Below, piece by piece: positions 3,358 to 63,042 of a stretch of 64,000 nucleotides of DNA. Position numbers and translations under genes: made by a program. The notes beneath the pieces were generated by a model. The model saw nothing but the letters and a program-made list of their open reading frames with translations. It had not been told where the DNA came from and did no database searches. The first letter of the stretch is position 1. Every line of letters starts with the position of its first letter. This DNA comes from Candidatus Sulfomarinibacteraceae bacterium. GTDB lineage: Bacteria > Acidobacteriota > Thermoanaerobaculia > Thermoanaerobaculales > Sulfomarinibacteraceae. The DNA lies in assembly GCA_963796455.1 (NCBI GenBank), contig CAWCLO010000001.1, positions 1,088,001 to 1,152,000 on the forward strand. The letters run 5' to 3'.

Positions 3358-3509
3358 CGCGCCATGACCTGGCGGCTTTTACACCCGAAGAAGTGAGCCG
3401 TTTTGGCTGTCGCTGATCGCTGACGCTGTTGACCGAACTCTGCCGCTGACTCCTGGTCGCTGCCGCTGTCCCTGAACGCTTTCCGAACGATTGTCTTGGA
3501 CCTGAGTGA
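3358..3509 (+). mobile_element. Four-helix-bundle element, 3' remnant (copy A)
   Basis: 3358-3396 encodes RAMTWRLLHPKK*, matching the C-terminus of the 15274 gene. It is followed by CGCTG hexamer arrays and the terminal TGTCTTGGACCTGAGTGA motif. Confidence 0.8.
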
Positions 3510-9514: not shown

Positions 9515-9545
9515 GCCAATCGCCAGACGGAGAAAACGGAGATTC

Positions 9546-9719
9546 GGAGAAACCGCAGATCACGCAGATGAACGCAGATAAACCACCACGTTCGCTATCG
9601 GAACCGATCGTGCGCCATTGTTTTTTTGAGTCAGCAAGCGAAAAATTGCAGGTGAAGCACTGCATCCCGACGTCGACGGAATTGCTCTCGTTTCTGCGTT
9701 TATCTGCGTGATCTGCGGT
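9546..9719. repeat. Inverted 9-mer element: CCGCAGATCACGCAGATGAACGCAGAT ... TCTGCGTTTATCTGCGTGATCTGCGG
   Basis: Arms at 9546-9579 and 9693-9719 are reverse complements; single arms recur at 10578-10611 and 51690-51722. Confidence 0.85.
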
Positions 9720-10534: not shown

Positions 10535-10577
10535 GGGAGACCTCCACTACCCAGGATACACGTCTCACCAGAACAAC

Positions 10578-10611
10578 GGAGAAACCGCAGATCACGCAGA
10601 TGAACGCAGAT
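10578..10611. repeat. 9-mer repeat arm GGAGAAACCGCAGATCACGCAGATGAACGCAGAT
   Basis: Identical to 9546-9579. Confidence 0.9.
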
Positions 10612-10671
10612 CAACCATCACAATCGCTTCTGGGAGCGAATGTCCGTCCGCGTGATTCGTGAACGAACCCT

Positions 10672-11003
10672 AATTGCAGCGGCAGCGACAGTGTCCAGCG
10701 TCAGCGAGCAGCGACAGAGAACAGCAATCAGCGGCAGCGTTCAGGAGTCCAAGCGACGAAGTGGCCACCTCCGGATGGTTCAACAGAAGGAACAGCCGTT
10801 GTGGTGTAGGCGTCTCGCCTGCACACAGTGCGGCCGAGACGGCCGCACCACAAAGTCCGGAGCCCGAAGAAGTGAGTGCTGTTCGCTGTCCCGGCCGCTG
10901 ATAACTGATTGCTGCCGCTGACTCCTGATCACTGTCGCTGTCCCTGTCCCTGTACGCTATCCGAGACTCTGTCTTGGACAACAGTGATCCAGTATCCAGT
11001 ATC
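10672..11003 (+). mobile_element. Four-helix-bundle element without its ORF, carrying a REP doublet instead (copy B)
   Basis: In order: left end AATTGCAGCGGCAGCGACAGTGTCCAGCG; 5' arm of the leader hairpin; REP doublet; CCGAAGAAGTGA (last ORF codons); CGCTG arrays; terminal GGACAACAGTGA; CAGTATC x2. Confidence 0.8.
10799..10853. repeat. REP doublet (REPIN-like)
   Basis: TTGTGGTGTAGGCGTCTCGCCTGCA...TGCGGCCGAGACGGCCGCACCACAA: two self-palindromic arms in inverted orientation. Confidence 0.8.
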
Positions 11004-14879: not shown

Positions 14880-15134
14880 GAATCGTTCCTCCGAAGACGG
14901 GGAGGTTGAGTATACGCCAACATCAATACTCGGATCTGAAATCTCGAATCACTGTTGTCCGAGAACACGGGCGGCAACGTCAGTGTCCAGCGACAGGGAC
15001 AGGGACAGGGACAGGGCAGTGTTCCGTGTTCAGCGATCAGCGGCAGCGGCAGCGGCAGCGGCAGTGAGCAGCGACAGGGAACAGCTGTCAGCGATCAGTG
15101 TTCATCGGCAGCGATCAGGTGTCCAGTCGGCGAA

Positions 15135-15275
15135 ATGGCCACCTCCGGGTCGTTCAACAGGAAGGGGTAGCCGGTGGGCGGCCGATGTCAAGGACAGGCA
15201 GGGTGCAGGGCATCCTTGACATCGGCCACCACACCGGCATGTGGGAATGGGCATGAACGACCCGGAGGTGACCAT
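15135..15275. ncRNA. Conserved nested stem-loop (leader of the four-helix-bundle gene); RNA versus ssDNA function unknown
   Basis: 22-bp outer stem 15135-15156/15254-15275 with 1 mismatch, covering GGAGG and the AT of ATG. Inner perfect 15-bp stem GGCCGATGTCAAGGA/TCCTTGACATCGGCC, extended by GCCGGTG/CACCGGC. Confidence 0.6.
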
Positions 15276-15627
15276 GTCCTCAGCCGCCACGAACACCAAC
15301 CTCGTTGCCCACTCGAAAGCCCTCGAAGCAGCAGGAATCGCGATCAAGCTTGTAATGAGGGTTCCATCGCCGCTGAAGTCCATAGCCGATCAGGTAATCC
15401 GTTCGGCAAGTTCAGTCCCAGCGAACCTGGCAGAAGGGCACGGTCGATTCGGTAGAGACCGGTCCAACCACTGGAGAATCGCCTACGCCTCGGCGAAGGA
15501 GGTCGACAGTCACCTGAAGCTCCTCGCACAGGCCGGGGCGATCAGCCGAACAGCCGCCCGTGAAGCGATGAAAGCCTTCGATGAGGTACGTGCCATGACC
15601 TGGCGGCTATTGAATCCGAAGAAATGA
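15274..15627 (+). CDS. Four-helix-bundle protein (23S rRNA IVP / TIGR02436-like), 117 aa
   Basis: DQVIRSASSVPANLAEGHGR and IAYASAKEV family motifs; GGAGGTGACC precedes the ATG. Confidence 0.9.
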   Translation: MSSAATNTNLVAHSKALEAAGIAIKLVMRVPSPLKSIADQVIRSASSVPANLAEGHGRFGRDRSNHWRIAYASAKEVDSHLKLLAQAGAISRTAAREAMKAFDEVRAMTWRLLNPKK

Positions 15628-15767
15628 GCGCTGTTCGCTGTCGCTGACTTCTGTTAGCTGACCCTGTCCGCTGTCGCTGCCGCTGGACTCTGCCGCTGCC
15701 GCCGGTCACTGAACGCCGTCCAGGACACTGTCCAGGGGAATGGTGAATTCGAATTTCGGAATCGGCG

Positions 15768-16367
15768 CTAACCGCCGAGGACCTCGCTTTCGAGACCCGA
15801 GAGATCGGGGATCGAGGGATTGTTTGTTTTCAGTTCTTTCAAACGGGCGAGTGCGGCTGCCGCCGCTTCGTGATCGTGGGTGTCGAATTGGTAGATGATG
15901 ACCTTGTTGTACCAGGCCTGCCAATGCTCGGGATGGATCTCGATCGCGCGATCAAGTTTCTCGACCGCAATCTGAGGCTGCTTCAAGTTCCGATAGACCA
16001 CCGCCAGGTCCGTCAGGACATTCGCGTCATTCGGTACAATTTGCAGAGATTTCTCGTACCAACTCCGGGCGTCCTCCCAACTCGAGGCATCAAAGAAGGC
16101 ATTGCCCATTGCCGCCATCAATCCAGGGTCATTGGGATTCGAGGCCATCAATCCCTGAATCTCCGAGATTTGTTGCTGTAATCGCTGTGCTTCGGCGGCT
16201 GCCGCCTGATCGATCGGTGGGTGTCCATCGGGCAGAGCCTCTCCCTGCGCGGCCGCAGGCGCGAGGGCCTTGTTCGGGGGTACCGGCTGCCTTTCGGCAA
16301 AGACGTAGCCCAGGACGAGACCGACCATCAACCCAATTACAAGCGTGAACCACGGATTTCGAAACAT
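15768..16367 (-). CDS. Membrane-anchored TPR protein
   Basis: TM helix; LPDGHPPI; TPR motifs (VLTDLAVVY). Confidence 0.8.
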   Translation of the reverse strand: MFRNPWFTLVIGLMVGLVLGYVFAERQPVPPNKALAPAAAQGEALPDGHPPIDQAAAAEAQRLQQQISEIQGLMASNPNDPGLMAAMGNAFFDASSWEDARSWYEKSLQIVPNDANVLTDLAVVYRNLKQPQIAVEKLDRAIEIHPEHWQAWYNKVIIYQFDTHDHEAAAAALARLKELKTNNPSIPDLSGLESEVLGG

Positions 16368-16467
16368 CTGAAAAAACCTCCTCCGGCCGGAATCGGCCAG
16401 GAACGGGGAATTTAGCACGAATCGGCGAAAGATGTCCCGCCCGGCATTCGAAAAATGGTGATGGCCC

Positions 16468-17187
16468 CTATTCGGTGTCGACGACCCGTGTCGCTGTCCA
16501 GGTGCCGGAGGAAGGAAGACCACTCGCCAGTTGAGTCGCTTCCCAACTGCCCTGAAGACGCTGACCGCTGCCGGTGCCGACCAGGCGTCCATAAAAAATC
16601 GCCGCAAAACCGATCTGCGAATCGATTCGTTCCAACCGGACCTTGCCAGCAACGAAGGTACCGCGGAAGGACCCGGAAAAGCCTCCCGACAAAGCGTAGG
16701 TACCGCTGACAAGGGTGCCCTGCTGTTGCAGGAAGATCAGACCCTCCTGGCCGGGGTCGACATTAACCTGCCAGGTTCCGGAGAGAGGAGCCGATCCGCC
16801 GCCGACCGCCGCGTTGAGCCGCTGAATCTCCTCGTTGATGGCCGCCAACATCGTCGCGTTCTCGAGCAACGAGCGCCGCAATTGTTGCGCCTTGAAAAGA
16901 CCATCGAGCATGGCGCTCTCGATCTGCCGGATATCGTCATCCCGAAGACGAAGGCTTTCGGCCGTCTCACCCTGTTGCTGGGCCCTGAGGAGATTGCTCG
17001 ACTGCATATCCAATCGCGACCAGATTTCGGTCAGGTTCTCTCGGACTTCAACCAGTTCCTGCATCTGCCCGGCCAGAATGCCTTCTCGAATCTTGGCCTG
17101 TCCGCGGAGGCTCTCGACCACCTGAGAGTTCGCAACTATCGGTTGCAGCAGCGCGACGACTCCAACGAGAAGTGCGGCTCGTTTCAT
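16468..17187 (-). CDS. Secreted hypothetical protein (coiled coil plus beta domain)
   Basis: Signal peptide MKRAALLVGVVALL; LSGTW...GTWTATR. Confidence 0.7.
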   Translation of the reverse strand: MKRAALLVGVVALLQPIVANSQVVESLRGQAKIREGILAGQMQELVEVRENLTEIWSRLDMQSSNLLRAQQQGETAESLRLRDDDIRQIESAMLDGLFKAQQLRRSLLENATMLAAINEEIQRLNAAVGGGSAPLSGTWQVNVDPGQEGLIFLQQQGTLVSGTYALSGGFSGSFRGTFVAGKVRLERIDSQIGFAAIFYGRLVGTGSGQRLQGSWEATQLASGLPSSGTWTATRVVDTE

Positions 17188-17222
17188 CCGGCGCTCCCCT
17201 TCCGCCCTTTGATGGACCCTGC

Positions 17223-18446
17223 TCATTCACCCTCAAAACGATTGACCACCGCGGTGCCAACCAGATCGCTCCACACGTTGGTAGCGGTTCGCATCATATC
17301 GAGCACGCGATCGACGGCGATGATCGTGCCGATTCCCTCGAGGGGCAGTCCAACCGCCTGGAGCACGACAACCAACATCACCAAACCGGCCATCGGGATA
17401 CCGGCCGCTCCGACCGATGCCAGGAGAGCTGTCAACAAGACCAACGCCTGCTGCAGCAGGCCAAGATCCACTCCGTACATCTGGGCAATGGTCAAAGCCG
17501 CCACCGCTTCATAGAGCGCCGTCCCATCCATGTTCACAGTTGCGCCAAGCGGCAGCACAAAACTCGACACGCCCCTTCGGTTGCCTGACTTCTCGGAGCA
17601 ATCCATGCTCAGCGGCAAGGTAGCCGACGACGAAGCGGTGGAAAATGCGGTCGCGACCGCAGGCGCCATCGCACGCGCATAGTCGATGGGTTTTCGCCGC
17701 GCGAGCACCGTAAGAATCAACGGCAAGGTCACGGTGGCGTGGATCAATAGGCCGAGACCGACGGTCAGAAAATAATAGCGAAGGTCCCAGATGATCCCGG
17801 GCCCGCTCCGTGCGACTTCTCGCGCGAGCAGGGCGAAGATGCCCACCGGAGCGAACTTGACGATGGCAAGCGTCAAGGCCTGGATAATCTCGAGAACCCC
17901 GTCCACCACCCGTTTTACGGTGTCGACGTTCGACCCGTTGAGACGGGTCAGAAACAGACCGAACAACAATGCAAAGACGATGACCGGCAGCACTTCTCCA
18001 GAAGCCATGGCTGCCACGATATTGTCCGGCACCATACGAATCAAAAACTGGGGAAGAGTCTGGGTTGCGGTTGTAAAACCTTCCGGCAGCTCCGATGTGC
18101 CCGCCAGATCAAGATATTTGCCGGGACGAATGATGTTGACCAACGTCAGACCGACGGCAATCGCCAGGGTTGTCGAGGCGGTGTAATAGATCATCGTCCG
18201 AATTCCCACGCGACCCACCGAACGGGCGGTTCCGAGGCTGGAAATTCCGCTGACCAATGAGGTGAAGATCAATGGAATGATGATCATCTTGAGCGCACGG
18301 AGAAAAAGATCACCGAGAAAACCGATGCTCTCGGAGGCCGCCGGCGCCAGCCAACCAAAGGCGACACCGGTTACGAGAGCGATCAGCACCTGCCAATGCA
18401 GTTTGAGGTACCAGGGCTTTGAGGTCAGGTTGTTTTCGGTCATCAA
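17223..18446 (-). CDS. Dicarboxylate/amino acid:cation symporter (DAACS, GltP-like)
   Basis: FSTASSSATLP, LPLGATVNMDGTALY and DRVLDMMRTATNV. Confidence 0.95.
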   Translation of the reverse strand: MMTENNLTSKPWYLKLHWQVLIALVTGVAFGWLAPAASESIGFLGDLFLRALKMIIIPLIFTSLVSGISSLGTARSVGRVGIRTMIYYTASTTLAIAVGLTLVNIIRPGKYLDLAGTSELPEGFTTATQTLPQFLIRMVPDNIVAAMASGEVLPVIVFALLFGLFLTRLNGSNVDTVKRVVDGVLEIIQALTLAIVKFAPVGIFALLAREVARSGPGIIWDLRYYFLTVGLGLLIHATVTLPLILTVLARRKPIDYARAMAPAVATAFSTASSSATLPLSMDCSEKSGNRRGVSSFVLPLGATVNMDGTALYEAVAALTIAQMYGVDLGLLQQALVLLTALLASVGAAGIPMAGLVMLVVVLQAVGLPLEGIGTIIAVDRVLDMMRTATNVWSDLVGTAVVNRFEGE

Positions 18447-18665
18447 TCCTCCGTTGTCATCGCGCAGAGGATACCATCGGCAGCCGCAAGGTCTCAGCTT
18501 TTTGACGATCGGTCATGCCGGTTTTCGGGAGAATTCGTCTCCGGAAACCAAGGTGCTGATTTCGGCCGTACAGAGGGAGAGGATAGGGCGATGGCCGCCG
18601 AGCCGCAGCGAAGATCTCGGTGCCTGCGAGACGGGCTCCGAACTCGAGTCGAAAAGTCGACCGAT

Positions 18666-19169
18666 CTACTCGTCGTCCTGACTGACGACGTGACCGAGCG
18701 CATCCTCGACCTGAGCTTCGACCTTTTCAACTGGTCGACCTTCCACCTCTGCGACCTCGTTCACCAGGAGCTGCCGGGCGTGGTCATACATTTTGCGTTC
18801 GCGAAAACTCAAGGTCTTGCGGCTCGCGACCTCGGCCAGACACAGAAGAACATTGACGATTTCGTCCAGGTCACCGGTCTTGATGCGTTCGAGATTCGCG
18901 CGGTAGCGATCTTTCCAATCCTCGGCATTCTCGCCTTCAGAGGATTTCAGACGCTTCATGGCCCGACGAACCAGCTTCTTTTCTGAAAGAGGCCGCAACC
19001 CGACTCTCTCCGAGTTACTCACGGGCACCATCACCTTGGAATCGGAGTTGATCAGGCGCAGGTGGTAGCATTTCATATCGGTGCCGGCAAAGACCTCATT
19101 CGCGATGGTTTCGACTTCCGACACGCCTTGACTCGGATAGACGACCTTGTCCCCGACCTTGAACTGCAC
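18666..19169 (-). CDS. carD: CarD-family transcription regulator
   Basis: FKVGDKVVYP, VGLRP, WKDRYR and LSFRERKM. Confidence 0.9.
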   Translation of the reverse strand: MQFKVGDKVVYPSQGVSEVETIANEVFAGTDMKCYHLRLINSDSKVMVPVSNSERVGLRPLSEKKLVRRAMKRLKSSEGENAEDWKDRYRANLERIKTGDLDEIVNVLLCLAEVASRKTLSFRERKMYDHARQLLVNEVAEVEGRPVEKVEAQVEDALGHVVSQDDE

Positions 19170-19233
19170 TCGTGCCCCTTTCGTGAACGACTCAGAGTAA
19201 CACGGCCAAATCGCCGATTCCTACCTTTTCGCT

Positions 19234-19878
19234 TCAAGCCAATTCGGCACGGCAGTGGGGGCACACGAGAGCACCGCTGCGAATTGCTCCTCCACAGTGT
19301 TCGCAGACCGCGCGCGGTCGATCCGCTGCCCGGATGACAACCGCCGACACTGCAACCAGGCCACCGAGGGCCAGGATCGACAACGGTGGCGCCACCAGCG
19401 CGGTGCCGGACAGGGTCATGGAGGCGCCGGCCTCACCCACCGAAGCCATCTTTCCGACGGCCTCGTGGGCATCCTCCGCAAGATTACGGAACGGTCTCCG
19501 GACCTGGTTGCGCATCCAGTGGACACCAGCCGCGGTGCCGCCACCAAGAACCCCCGAAGTTCCAAGCTGAACCAGGTCGTTGTCGAGGCGCCCGGTCACC
19601 GCCGCGAAAGCGAGAAAACCAGCAACCATTTTCGGCAAATAGGCGATGACATCCGAAAAGCGACCGAGGTCCGGGTGCGCATCGACGATGATTTCGGCCA
19701 CAACCAGGACTCCGAGCACCACCATCACAATCGGGTCGGCAATCCAGGCAAAACGATCGGCGATTTCAAAATAAGGTGTGTAGCTGAACGCACCAAGGGC
19801 CAGGATCGGAATAAAGGCCTTGGCACCGGCACCAGCTGCGAGCCCGAATGCGGCCATATACGTCATCAACGATTCCAT
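19234..19878 (-). CDS. DUF4126-like membrane protein with a C-terminal zinc ribbon
   Basis: FGLAAGAG..FIP; CEHCG...CPHC. Confidence 0.65.
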   Translation of the reverse strand: MESLMTYMAAFGLAAGAGAKAFIPILALGAFSYTPYFEIADRFAWIADPIVMVVLGVLVVAEIIVDAHPDLGRFSDVIAYLPKMVAGFLAFAAVTGRLDNDLVQLGTSGVLGGGTAAGVHWMRNQVRRPFRNLAEDAHEAVGKMASVGEAGASMTLSGTALVAPPLSILALGGLVAVSAVVIRAADRPRAVCEHCGGAIRSGALVCPHCRAELA

Positions 19879-19894
19879 AACAAACTCCCTTCGA

Positions 19895-20533
19895 TCATGA
19901 TGATTGCAGGCTCTCGACGATGGCCATGACCGACCAACCAAAAAAAGCCGCAACACCAATCAGTATCAACAGCAGGCCGATACTGAGGACGGCCAGCACG
20001 ATGGGGATCACCTTTTCCCACGGAGCCAGCCGACGACCCTCTCGCTCGCGCTGCAAACTGACCAGAGTCGACACGTGAACAACAGTTGTCAGCACCACGA
20101 AGGTGCCGGCACCGATCAGGGCCCCGACAAACGGGACCGTCATCGCACCATAACCCGGGATGCCCAGCCACAAAAATCCGAATCGGGCCAACCAGCGGTT
20201 GAGCAACCTGCGAACGGGTCCTAGCAATCGCTGTGCATCCCTGACCAGAAATACGCGCGTCACCACCAGATGAACGGCGACCACGAGCGGAACGACGGCC
20301 AGAGCGCCAAAATGCAACAAGGGCACGCCGAACCCAAGGACCGCCGCGATCGGGGCCCCCCACGCGAGCAAAAGGCGATAGCGCGCACATTGAGCGGCCT
20401 CTACCCTGTCGCAACGCACCCGAAAGGCCTCCGGTTCTCCATCATCCCCGATCGCCCGCCCACAAAGCGGACAATCGGCCGCATCAGAAAGCAGCGGCAG
20501 GGGTTCCAGACACCAGGGACAGGAGCGCTTCAT
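19895..20533 (-). CDS. Membrane protein with an N-terminal zinc finger
   Basis: CPWC...CPLC followed by several TM segments; TATACT 6 nt upstream of ATG 20533. Confidence 0.7.
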   Translation of the reverse strand: MKRSCPWCLEPLPLLSDAADCPLCGRAIGDDGEPEAFRVRCDRVEAAQCARYRLLLAWGAPIAAVLGFGVPLLHFGALAVVPLVVAVHLVVTRVFLVRDAQRLLGPVRRLLNRWLARFGFLWLGIPGYGAMTVPFVGALIGAGTFVVLTTVVHVSTLVSLQREREGRRLAPWEKVIPIVLAVLSIGLLLILIGVAAFFGWSVMAIVESLQSS

Positions 20534-20684
20534 TGCCAAAGTATACGTAGGTCGGGCACTTCAATTCCGTTCAGGACTGGTGCACGGGACAAGACTCAGG
20601 ATTACTGCCGCCCAAAACACCAGCGATCAGGGGCGGTGTTCAGCGACGGCGACAGTGTCCAGCGGCAGCGACAGGGAACAGCGC

Positions 20685-21038
20685 TCAATTCTTCGGATTC
20701 AATAGCCGCCAGGTCATGGCACGGACCTGATCGAAGGCCCTCATCGCTTCACTGGCTCCATTCCAACTAACCGCCCCGGCGTGGGCGAGGAGCTGCAAGT
20801 GGCTGTCGACCTCTTTTGCCGAGGCGTACGCGATTCTCCAGTGGTTCAACCGGTCTCTACCAAAACGGCCGTGGCCTTCCGCAATATTCGCTGGGACCGA
20901 ACTTGCCGACCGAATCACCTGATCTGCTATGGACTTCAGCGGAGCTGGAACCCTCATCACGAGTTTGATCGCGATGCCTGCTGCTTCGAGGGCTTTCGAG
21001 TGGGCAACGAGGTTGGTGTTTGTGGCGGCGTTGGACAT
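20685..21038 (-). CDS. Four-helix-bundle protein (IVP-like), 117 aa
   Basis: 14 differences in 117 aa from the 15274 protein by my alignment. Confidence 0.9.
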   Translation of the reverse strand: MSNAATNTNLVAHSKALEAAGIAIKLVMRVPAPLKSIADQVIRSASSVPANIAEGHGRFGRDRLNHWRIAYASAKEVDSHLQLLAHAGAVSWNGASEAMRAFDQVRAMTWRLLNPKN

Positions 21039-21177
21039 GGTCACCTTCGGGTCGTTCATGCCCATGCCCACAAGCCGGTGTGGTGGCCGATGTCAAGGAT
21101 GCCCCGCACCCTGCCTGTCCTTGATATCGGCCGCCCACCGGCTACTCCTTTCTGTTGAACGACCCGGAGGTGGCCAC
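21037..21177. ncRNA. Conserved nested stem-loop, second full copy
   Basis: Same length as and near-identical to 15135-15275, in the opposite orientation. Confidence 0.6.
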
Positions 21178-21429
21178 GTCGTCGTTGCACCTGATCGCTG
21201 ACCCTGAACACTGATTGCTGCCCCCTGTCCCTGTTAGCTGTTGCCTGTCGCTGACGCTGGACACTGTCGCTGCCGCCGCAATTCGGGATCGGGCTCGGGC
21301 AACCGCGAACCGGATACGCCGACATCCAACCTGGAAACCACGTGTTGTCAGGTGGGTAACTTCACGTGGCGAGCAGTATTGGACAGCAGTGATGCAGGAT
21401 GCAGCGAGATCGGAATCTCGTCCTCGAAC

Positions 21430-32881: not shown

Positions 32882-33215
32882 AGGCCAGAGGCTAAAGGCT
32901 TTAGGCTGTAAGCTATAGGCTGTTGTGGCTTTGATTCTGTCGCCCCTTCAGGGCTGGTTATTCGGGGAGGGCACGGTACCTGGGGCTCGCGCCCCAAGGG
33001 TGCCGCGACGGACAATTCCAATTCTCTGATCCGGAGGCTGTTCGGTCACAGCCTTTGTCCTAAAGCTGAAAGCTCATAGCCCATAGCTCATAGCCCATAG
33101 CCCATAGCTCATAGCCCATAGCCCATAGCTCATAGCCCATAGCCCATAGCTCATAGCCCATAGCTCATAGCCCATAGCCCATAGCCCATAGCTCATAGCC
33201 CATAGCCCATAGCCC
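32882..33215. repeat. Inverted heptamer arrays (AGGCTNN)6 ... (ATAGCYC)20 enclosing a degenerate REP-like hairpin
   Basis: Left array 32882-32923; right array 33076-33215; GCCCCTTCAGGGC and TGGGGCTCGCGCCCCA lie between them. Confidence 0.9.
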
Positions 33216-33239
33216 ATAGGCTTTTTGATTGCCCTCGAG

Positions 33240-45796: not shown

Positions 45797-45867
45797 TCCC
45801 TCACACTGGGATTCTCCACCTCGCGGCGGGGTTGGTGATTGTAGCGCGAAGTCGGCGGGAAGGCTAT

Positions 45868-46009
45868 GGGGCTTGGGGCTTGGGGCTTGGGGCTTGGGGC
45901 TTGGGGCTTGGGGCTTGGGGCTTGGGGCTTGGGGCTTGGGGCTTGGGGCTTCAATGGATCGATCGCGTATCTGAGCATGTCAAGCCCCAGGTCCCGGGTC
46001 TCGAGCCTC
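45868..46009. repeat. (GGGGCTT)12 perfect array with a degenerate inverted partner
   Basis: 45868-45951 is perfect; CAAGCCCCAGGTCCCGGGTCTCGAGCCTC lies at 45981-46009. Confidence 0.95.
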
Positions 46010-49190: not shown

Positions 49191-49251
49191 GTCGACAATG
49201 ATGCCACAGGCGGCAGACTTTCTCCCCTTCCCCTGTCAGTCTCGGCGCCCG

Positions 49252-49697
49252 AGTTGCAGCGGCAGCGACAGTGTCCAGCGTCAGCGTCAGCGACAGCGGC
49301 AGCGGTCAGGAGTACAGGCGGCGAAGTGGCCACCACCGGGTCGTTCAAAAGAAGGGGTAGCCGGTGGGCGGCCGAGTCGGTAGAGACCGGTCGAATCACT
49401 GGAGAATCGCCTACGCCTCGGCGAAAGAGGTCGACAGCCACTTGCTACTCCTCGCCCACGCCGGAGCGATCAGCCCTAACGGAGCCAGTGAAGCGATGAA
49501 CGCCTTCGATCAAGTCCGTGCCATGACCTGGCGGCTGCTGAACCCGAAGAAGTGATTGCAGTCGCTGTCCCGGCCGCTGGTCGCTGCCGCTGACTCCTGT
49601 TCTCTGACGCTGTTCCCTGTCGCCGTCCCTGAACGATAGCCGACACCCTGTCTTGAACAAGAGTGATCCAGCATCTAGCATCCAGCATCGAGTATCG
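49252..49697 (+). mobile_element. Four-helix-bundle element with an internal deletion (copy E)
   Basis: Full left end and 5' half of the leader fused to the 3' half of the ORF; right arrays; GAACAAGAGTGA; then AGCATC heptamers. Confidence 0.8.
49376..49555 (+). pseudogene. 5'-deleted four-helix-bundle gene
   Basis: GRDRSNHWRIAYASAKEV...RAMTWRLLNPKK* lacking the N-terminal half and the RBS. Confidence 0.9.
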
Positions 49698-49700
49698 AAG

Positions 49701-49773
49701 GGCCGGACGGCTCTCCCTTTCCCCCCTTCTCCCTTTCTCCCTTTCCCTTTCCCCCCTGCCCTCTGCCCCCCTG
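49701..49773. repeat. Pyrimidine-rich 8-mer array (CCCTTTCY / CCCTGCC)
   Basis: Read directly; approximately complementary to 51555-51652. Confidence 0.8.
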
Positions 49774-51522: not shown

Positions 51523-51776
51523 TCCGATCCCGTTCCCGATCCCGCAAGCACGCAGGGGAGAAAGGGGGAAAGGGGGAAAGGGAGATCCATCTCAGACATG
51601 GCAGAGGGCAGAGGGGCAAGGGGGCAGAGGAGAAAGGGAGGCCGTCGGTCCGTTCTGTGGTTCACCTTCACATCGACAGCGATGTCCTCTCTGCGTTCAC
51701 CTGCGTGATCTGCGGTTTCTCCTGGGTTGTTCGGCGAAATCCGAAATCCGAAATCCGAAATTCCTAATTCCTAATC
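51523..51776. repeat. Stack of repeats: CCCGAT 6-mers, GAAAGGGG and GCAGAGGG 8-mers, a 9-mer arm, and GAAATCC 7-mers
   Basis: Read directly; each unit recurs elsewhere in the window. Confidence 0.85.
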
Positions 51777-56760: not shown

Positions 56761-56882
56761 GATGTCATCCTGAGCGGAGCCCCAAAGGGGCGCAGTCGAA
56801 GGATCTACGGCGCACACGGGAGAGACCCAAGACCGCAGATCCTTCGACTCGGCCGTCGGACGGCCTCGCTCAGGATGACATC
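56761..56882. repeat. Palindromic repeat element GATGTCATCCTGAGCG...CGCTCAGGATGACATC
   Basis: Perfect 16-bp outer and 13-bp inner (AGTCGAAGGATCT/AGATCCTTCGACT) inverted repeats, with side hairpins. Confidence 0.9.
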
Positions 56883-56921
56883 TTGAACGACGGTTCCGAT
56901 CCCGAGCCCGATCCCGTTCCC

Positions 56922-57001
56922 GAAAGGGAGAAAGGGGGAAAGGGAGAAAGGGAGAAAGGGGAAAGGGGGAAAGGGGGAAAGGGGGAAGGGGAAGAGGGAG
57001 A
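56922..57001. repeat. Purine 8-mer array (GAAAGGGR)n
   Basis: Read directly. Confidence 0.9.
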
Positions 57002-57040
57002 ACCGTACCGGAAGCTCTGTACATGATAAGGAGCGGGTGT

Positions 57041-57160
57041 CCTCTGCTCCTCTGCTCCTCTGCTCCTCTGCTCCTCTGCTCCTCTGCTCCTCTGCTCCTC
57101 TGCTCCTCTGCTCCTCTGCTCCTCTGCTCCTCTGCTCCTCTGCTCCTCTGCTCCTCTGCT
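57041..57160. repeat. (CCTCTGCT)15 perfect array
   Basis: 120 nt perfect; approximately complementary to the GCAGAGGG units at ~56676-56710. Confidence 0.97.
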
Positions 57161-57215
57161 CGACGAACCCATCTCGATCACGGTCTCTTCAAGGGAATTC
57201 CGCTATGCTTCGGGC

Positions 57216-62795: not shown

Positions 62796-62921
62796 GGTCG
62801 GTATTCTAGCTTGGATTCACCGGAAGTTGCCCGATTGACAACACGAGTCTTACGGGTCGGTCTTTGGTTTGTCCGAATCTCGGTTGGCCCGTGCCCGCGT
62901 CCGCGTCCGCGTCCGCGCCCG

Positions 62922-63042
62922 AATTGCAGCGGCAGCGGCACGATGCAGCGACAGATAGCAGCGTCCAGGAACGGCGAACAGGGGCGGTTATTCGGAGGCA
63001 GTTCGCTGTCGCAATCCGAGACTCTGTCCCGAACAAGAGTGA
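62922..63042 (+). mobile_element. Minimal (ends-only) derivative of the four-helix-bundle element (copy F)
   Basis: Left end AATTGCAGCGGCAGCG and right end ATCCGAGACTCTGTCCCGAACAAGAGTGA, matching copies B and E. Confidence 0.65.

Follow-up and report, generated by a model that had tools for sequence, protein, structure and literature searches.

A dispersed cassette with IS4-type ends and a four-helix-bundle passenger gene, likely moved in trans, in a Sulfomarinibacteraceae genome

The 64-kb window analysed here (G000:C1:1088001-1152000; G000 is the genome under study, that of a Candidatus Sulfomarinibacteraceae bacterium, and other G numbers designate the genomes of relatives) contains a dispersed element, hereafter the cassette, represented by two copies with an intact gene for a 117-amino acid (aa) four-helix-bundle protein and by four derivatives. 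An initial annotation had described a six-segment family in which a nested hairpin and an open reading frame (ORF) are enclosed between complementary hexamer arrays. All six segments proved to be present. Comparison of the window with itself revealed the blocks that the intact pair and the derivatives have in common, and the ORF is uninterrupted in both full copies, which are 89% complementary across 519 nt. The intact element is about 850 bp long and bounded by 18-bp terminal inverted repeats of the form CAC…GTG.

The limits of these segments had to be redrawn. The sequence initially taken for the left end, AATTGCAGCGGCAGCG, is an internal junction; the terminal repeat, CACTGCTGTCCAAAACAG, lies about 110-125 bp farther out. 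It is the inverse of the right end, CTGTCTTGGACAAGAGTG, and is found approximately 350-400 bp upstream from the ATG in most copies. Finding this outer repeat extends copy 2 to 21391 rather than 21283 and places the start of the 62.9-kb derivative near 62817. The segments assigned to the four derivatives are real but their boundaries shifted to those in Table 1. Copy 1 lacks both the AATTGCAGC motif and the left subterminal segment and begins directly at the terminal repeat; the right ends are decayed in both intact copies. In the 10.7-kb derivative, a doublet of repetitive extragenic palindromes (REP) replaces the hairpin and the ORF. The junction of the internal-deletion derivative recurs exactly at three loci.

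Table 1. Cassette copies and derivatives in the window (window coordinates).
Feature	Position	Strand	Remarks
Copy 1	14950..15745	+	ORF intact; two worn termini; left subterminal segment absent
Copy 1, 9-bp flanks	14941-14949 / 15746-15754		ATCTCGAAT / AATTCGAAT; 7/9 positions alike
Copy 1, left terminal inverted repeat	14950..14967	+	IS4-type CAC... end
Copy 1, 5′ degenerate CAGCG(N)/CAGGGA hexamer array	14968..15131	+	Pairs with 3′ array in predicted fold
Copy 1, nested hairpin	15132..15278	+	Folding; covariation
Copy 1, 117-aa four-helix-bundle ORF	15274..15627	+	TIGR02436 / PF05635
Copy 1, 3′ complementary (N)CGCTG array and decayed right terminal repeat	15628..15745	+	
Copy 2	20575..21391	-	Intact ORF 20685-21038; right end decayed, position approximate
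Copy 2, left terminal repeat; subterminal segment	21374-21391; 21284-21373	-	
Fragment: final ORF codons, 3′ array, right terminal repeat	3358..3508	+	Followed by ATCCAGC-type target array
ORF-less derivative: 5′ array, hairpin arm, REP doublet (~10798-10852), 3′ array, right terminal repeat	10664..10986	+	
Internal-deletion derivative: hairpin arm fused to ~codon 57, right terminal repeat	49248..49665	+	
Short derivative: partial left subterminal segment, collapsed arrays, right terminal repeat	62817..63041	+	

Outside the window the cassette is abundant. In the G000 assembly (90.5% complete), a tblastn search with the protein returned 102 high-scoring segment pairs, 59 of which span the protein at more than 75% identity; 58 of these 59 near-full-length ORFs have no internal stop. 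With a full copy as blastn query, the genome-wide count that the initial annotation had called for came to 232 loci and 100,009 bp, so that the family makes up about 2% of the genome (100 kb). Among the 59 full copies, the left end was recognised in 32, the right end in 48 and both in 26. A genome scan for ends yielded 268 ends forming 79 inward pairs, of which 78 are less than 1 kb apart and none has the size of an insertion sequence (IS).

The flanks of these pairs carry the signature of target duplication. Nine-base-pair flanks agree at 8/9 positions or better in 40 of 78 inward pairs, the corresponding figure for shuffled partners being 8.9 on average and 18 at most (2000 shuffles). For the 24 pairs that lie outside repeat arrays, 9-bp flank identity is 0.69 versus 0.33, a value reached in none of 2000 shuffles; in pairs outside arrays, lengths of 8, 10, 11 and 12 bp stay at background and 7 bp is slightly raised. 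When duplication lengths from 4 to 13 were tried at four offsets, the best fit was 9 bp with CAC/GTG termini, and lengths 7, 11 and 13 at other offsets correspond to the same register. For 155 ends, the target consensus reads ATSCWGSAT, a palindrome that falls together with an ATCCAGC-type heptamer array; of 107 arrays of this type, 60 are found within 80 bp of a cassette end.

Orthologous sites devoid of the element were sought in the syntenic stretch of 20 congeners. The four-helix-bundle gene is absent from this stretch in all 20. The spacer holding copy 1 measures 64-410 bp in congeners versus 891 bp in G000; that holding copy 2 measures 76-430 bp, with no gene, in 14 of 14 measurable relatives, versus 893 bp in G000. 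Both intact copies are thus missing from the orthologous spacers of all relatives checked, the outcome expected if the initial suggestion of a dispersed family was correct. Most orthologous spacers are filled with other inverted heptamer arrays, and the second spacer of G020 has CAGCG arrays without the ORF.

As a separate observation, nearly each congener has inverted heptamer arrays of its own in these spacers (GAATTTC, AAATCCG, AACGTTC, GAGTTTT; L091-L110), a sign that intergenic repeats turn over very rapidly throughout the genus. In the same loci, the interval between rarA and a PP0621-family gene is about 550 bp longer in most congeners than in G000 and G010; the shortfall in these two genomes probably reflects a lost gene.

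A candidate for the transposase emerged from DDE_Tnp_1 loci collected from 25 congeners. One locus of G017 (L028) is a 1411-bp element bounded by cassette-type ends. Its 401-aa product scores 251 bits against the IS4 profile NF033592 (cut-off 115), comprises DUF4372 and DDE_Tnp_1 domains and, as read from the sequence, contains the Y(2)R(3)E(6)K motif (YREK). All 18 bases of the cassette left end recur in the right end of this element; past them the two resemble each other weakly. In G054, the left end of a second IS4, homologous to the first, matches the cassette right end over about 30 bp. The end signature, the size and the 9-bp duplication fit the IS4Sa subgroup when compared with the table in PMC2266710, in whose available part this subgroup is given the end signature CA------T and direct repeats of 8-10 bp, a range that includes the length found here. 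No match to PF13006 (Nterm_IS4) was obtained in the 25 genomes. Two other candidate movers were rejected for G000: the ends of its sole DDE_Tnp_1 gene differ from those of the cassette, and for ISL3 there is no transposase in this genome, merely scattered end-like matches.

Shell and contents can be separated. Matches to the IS4-type end motif number 161 in G000, 77 in G006, 68 in G021, 24 in G008 and 11 in G012, with zero in reversed controls. At all nine loci fetched from G021, G008, G012 and G020, the shell is free of the four-helix-bundle module; these gene-less shells are MITEs (miniature inverted-repeat transposable elements) of 280-390 bp with REP-like cargo. Within G000, the ORF-less class with the REP doublet, which includes the 10.7-kb derivative, gave 40 junction matches, 35 of them in full element context (58 with a looser pattern). 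Duplications of at least 8/9 accompany 15 of 28 paired ORF-less REP copies versus 13 of 29 full copies, and the numbers of ORF-less and intact copies are about equal. Having multiplied with duplications of their own, the ORF-less copies indicate that the protein is not needed in cis. A young burst is found in G006, where 28 copies at 98.2% identity include many with perfect 9-bp duplications.

Conversely, the module occurs in other settings. In sister species it lies between GG(C/T)TCATCCGG ends with 8-bp duplications, and intact ISL3 elements of G022 and G017 have these same ends; both ISL3 ends are present in 9 of 24 parsed sister-species loci (one counted twice; 14 of 38 unparsed). The inner-module gene has 26 strong matches in G004 and 33 in G040. 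Of 30 loci examined there, two, both in G004, show one ISL3-like end match each; no 14-mer is common to at least 4 of 15 loci in the G004 flanks, and in both genomes the module seems to be bounded by degenerate hexamer arrays alone. At one locus of G017 (L134, G017:C613), an intact ISL3 adjoins a four-helix-bundle module carrying an ISL3 end. Two REP-like hairpins were also noted in the window, at 32905-32990, resembling the cargo of the gene-less IS4 MITEs of G021 and G020, and at 56770-56880.

These data argue for a two-layer element, an IS4-type MITE shell around a passenger module, for which a cognate IS4 DDE transposase acting in trans is the likely mover; we put the probability of this reading at about 0.78. 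The terminal inverted repeats, the passenger gene and the lack of a transposase between the ends are those of an IS4-derived mobile insertion cassette (MIC) or MITE. The terminal repeats, the 9-bp duplications, the empty sites and the intact IS4 of a congener, whose ends are those of the cassette, bear out the earlier description of a dispersed family that lacks a transposase and includes both full-length and MITE-like members, and support the proposal that it is likely mobilised in trans. The module, with its arrays, hairpin and gene, would be the older part, captured later by an IS4 MITE. As long as the lineage had the transposase, this enzyme would have moved the cassette by cut and paste, with ATCCAGC-type heptamer arrays as targets; it may now be lost or unassembled. 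Deletions and replacement by the REP doublet would have produced the ORF-less MITEs, which kept moving, and recombination between copies would have shuffled the ORF alleles.

Several observations weigh against this interpretation. The cognate transposase was not found in G000 (tblastn, E<1, in the 90.5%-complete assembly) nor in G006; among 119 genomes of the order, just 6 were found to have it. The intact IS4 of G017 has no target duplication. Both ends are still recognisable in only 26 of the 59 full copies, the flanks of 38 of the 78 pairs do not reach the 8/9 match, and the relatives, only about 70-75% identical, are too distant for the exact pre-insertion site to be rebuilt. In G004 and G040 no IS4 ends surround the module at any of the 30 loci (15 each). 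Finally, neutral evolution would be expected of a passive passenger once it has multiplied in a burst, yet pN/pS for private changes in the G006 copies is 0.24 (see below).

The last point concerns the protein. Both 117-aa ORFs score above the cut-off for TIGR02436 and PF05635, as the initial annotation had anticipated. Among solved structures, Xcc0516 (2GSC) is the closest in sequence. An AlphaFold model built on a 13-sequence alignment (predicted local distance difference test, pLDDT, 93.8) superimposes on 2GSC and 2RLD with a template modelling (TM) score of about 0.8, and more weakly on Avd, with a TM score of 0.76-0.8 at 9-12% identity and E>0.05. By homology, the protein is likely a nucleic-acid-binding pentamer.

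The ORF is under purifying selection. Among the 59 G000 ORFs, which were picked as full length, dN/dS is 0.14, with 0.12-0.18 for shared variants and 0.61 for private ones, the latter not significantly under neutral (p 0.08). From G006, 36 copies were fetched, one was unparsed and seven divergent ones were left out; the 28 used show 19 synonymous and 14 missense private changes (pN/pS 0.24, p 0.0002) and, with states seen in other copies excluded, 8/147 versus 12/725 (p 0.011), although this set comes from best-scoring matches, a choice that favours conserved copies. The copies of G000 fall into a single clade (support 0.93), and copies in general group by host. They are mosaics in which multi-base haplotype blocks assort freely, r2 being about 0.02 beyond 50 bp. 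As the reason for the selection we prefer a candidate explanation whereby missense subunits would poison shared rings and null copies would be harmless.

The predicted stability of the hairpin (-92.6 kcal/mol, z -8.8, matched by none of 200 shuffles) agrees with the nested structure described at the outset. The outer stem buries a GGAGG ribosome-binding site and extends to the ATG; the inner stem contains an inverted TTGACA pair which, together with a TA that lies on its antisense side at a distance of 16-17 bases, is conserved. In the predicted fold the 5′ and 3′ arrays pair with each other, enclosing hairpin and ORF (z -6.8, 0/20 shuffles). Covariation is apparent in 23 sequences: both partners have changed in 14 of the 45 pairs, more than in controls made by shuffling or sliding, with double changes in 42 cells and single-sided (wobble) changes in 5. 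As doubles far outnumber wobbles, arm correction at the DNA level may explain the covariation as well as selection on RNA. A scan of copy 1 found no sigma-70 promoter or terminator, and Rfam returned seven weak matches, all far under the gathering score. The hairpin would hold the gene translationally off in read-through transcripts. The idea of an invertible promoter inside the hairpin was dismissed, since none of 59 copies is inverted. In the G006 burst (L084-L086) the hairpin interior is swapped for another stem-loop and the outer stem that buries the Shine-Dalgarno sequence is kept.

G000 has four other, unrelated four-helix-bundle genes (C4:1278094, C1:983149, C9:2726 and C10:733004). Each is boxed by inverted arrays of its own unit (CTCTGCTC, CCCATAG, TAATTCC and ATAGCG), and these units also build 14-60 arrays genome-wide. 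Long orphan tandem arrays occupy intergenic spacers of the window at 33046-33227, 45860-45950, 56913-57161, 49706-49756 and 51543-51641, with units CCCATAG, GGGGCTT, CTCTGCTC and AAAGGGRG, several of which also flank four-helix-bundle genes elsewhere. The window further contains CGCAGATCACGCAGAT repeats (9545-9719, 10577-10646, 51690-51722), present at 135 loci genome-wide and similar in pattern to the inverted repeats flanking two GxxExxY (PF13366) genes (L173, L174).

The rival explanation that survives best makes the inner module itself the selfish unit, which would copy itself into pre-existing, dispersed hexamer arrays by array-primed recombination or template switching with help from the protein, the IS shells being incidental. 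The initial annotation had likewise taken the protein and its structured sequence for the mobile unit. In favour of this view are the multiplication of the module without IS4 ends in G004 and G040, its presence between ISL3 ends with 8-bp duplications, the grouping of copies by host with unlinked haplotype blocks, the purifying selection on the ORF and the boxing of each of the other four-helix-bundle genes of G000 by a dispersed repeat family of its own. However, the boundaries and duplications in G000 and G006 and the burst in G006 agree with a shell that transposes as a whole, intact copies do not outnumber ORF-less ones, the fold has no known catalytic activity according to the available text of PMC4990558, and the ends in G004 and G040 may be decayed or those of another IS. 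Inner-module spread is thus weak for the G000 boundaries and the simplest account for G004 and G040; as a general explanation it appears improbable. The earlier claim fares accordingly: it retains value for G004 and G040 and for the selected ORF, and is not supported for G000, where the ends are those of an IS4, the shell also carries unrelated REP cargo and ORF-less copies multiply.

A broader scheme is, at best, a tentative possibility. PF05635 genes might be the protein part of distinct selfish cassettes that spread among short tandem arrays by protein-assisted recombination. Each paralogue would be tied to its own repeat family and would hitch onto IS4 or ISL3 MITEs, and the ORF-bearing intervening sequences (IVS) of rRNA would be modules that landed in rRNA genes.

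We regard as very unlikely a route through RNA, also raised initially, in which RNase III would excise an RNA resembling a free rRNA IVS and reverse transcription would return it to the chromosome. The arrays can pair around the ORF like IVS ends, RNase III excises the Coxiella IVS (PMC4990558, in the part available), many copies lack the left end, and the fold resembles Avd. On the other hand, no PF00078 match, and hence no reverse transcriptase, was found in the 90.5%-complete G000 assembly, the terminal repeats and duplications are accounted for by IS4, and the hairpin changes, nearly all double, are also consistent with DNA-level arm correction. Least credible of all is a REPIN-like cassette moved by a HUH nuclease (a REP-associated tyrosine transposase, RAYT) acting on hairpins: the co-occurrence suggested earlier holds to the extent that G000 has six Y1_Tnp matches and that two RAYT genes have flanks matching the REP doublet of the 10.7-kb derivative at 22-24 of 26 positions, but no cassette terminal repeat was seen by eye beside five Y1 loci, the REP is internal and confined to one derivative class, and the 9-bp duplication at a palindromic target and ends that match IS4, not the REPs of a RAYT gene, point to DDE chemistry.

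The reading we favour, an IS4-type shell with a passenger module, has partial precedents. In the available portions of the sources, PF05635-type genes are described as scattered in cas loci (PMC3936711), the family is linked to Avd (PMC10053308), and paired inverted heptamer arrays without these proteins are reported in Xanthomonas (PMC4692102); a term search of the accessible text of PMC4679880 found no mention of these proteins. No description of multicopy mobile PF05635 cassettes was found in a literature coverage that excludes most subscription papers and supplements. With the accessory protein Avd of diversity-generating retroelements (DGR) the cassette protein shares the four-helix-bundle fold; unlike a DGR, G000 has no PF00078 match, and no search for template and variable repeats (TR/VR) was made. 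BrickBuilt of Porphyromonas gingivalis is similarly a MITE found between genes, which has leader and tail segments and tandem repeats inside, but is described, in the available part of PMC4596501, without a protein gene, whereas the cassette keeps a gene under selection in 59 copies.

The ORF-bearing 23S rRNA IVS of Coxiella and Leptospira (S23p / 23S_rRNA_IVP) are akin in protein family and fold and in having an ORF enclosed by complementary arms and likely translated poorly (PMC4990558, accessible part). The cassette, in contrast, is intergenic and multicopy, the one 23S gene of G000 being free of such an ORF; its Shine-Dalgarno sequence is strong but buried, and its ORF is conserved rather than decaying. 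That the rRNA ORFs are transposition remnants or mobility factors are old, unproven ideas (PMC4990558, same portion). Since the gene here belongs to a delimited mobile unit whose ends and target are known and for which there is a candidate transposase, both can now be assayed.

The closest parallel is with passenger-carrying relatives of IS231/IS4, such as MIC231 of Bacillus cereus, a mobile insertion cassette. As far as the available parts of PMC6542083 and PMC2266710 go, these too have IS4-family ends around a passenger gene, no transposase of their own and a transposase acting in trans. The cassette differs from them by its IS4Sa-type ends, by its roughly 230 loci per genome and by a passenger that consists of a gene with its own hairpin and arrays, found also in ISL3 shells or in none. 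A MIC or MITE is an already known kind of element; the wider multiplication of the inner module and its selected ORF remain beyond a plain MIC. The puzzle that the cassette adds is that of a gene present in dozens of copies, whose null alleles are tolerated and missense alleles purged, whose alleles are shuffled, and whose vehicle is swapped between sister species.

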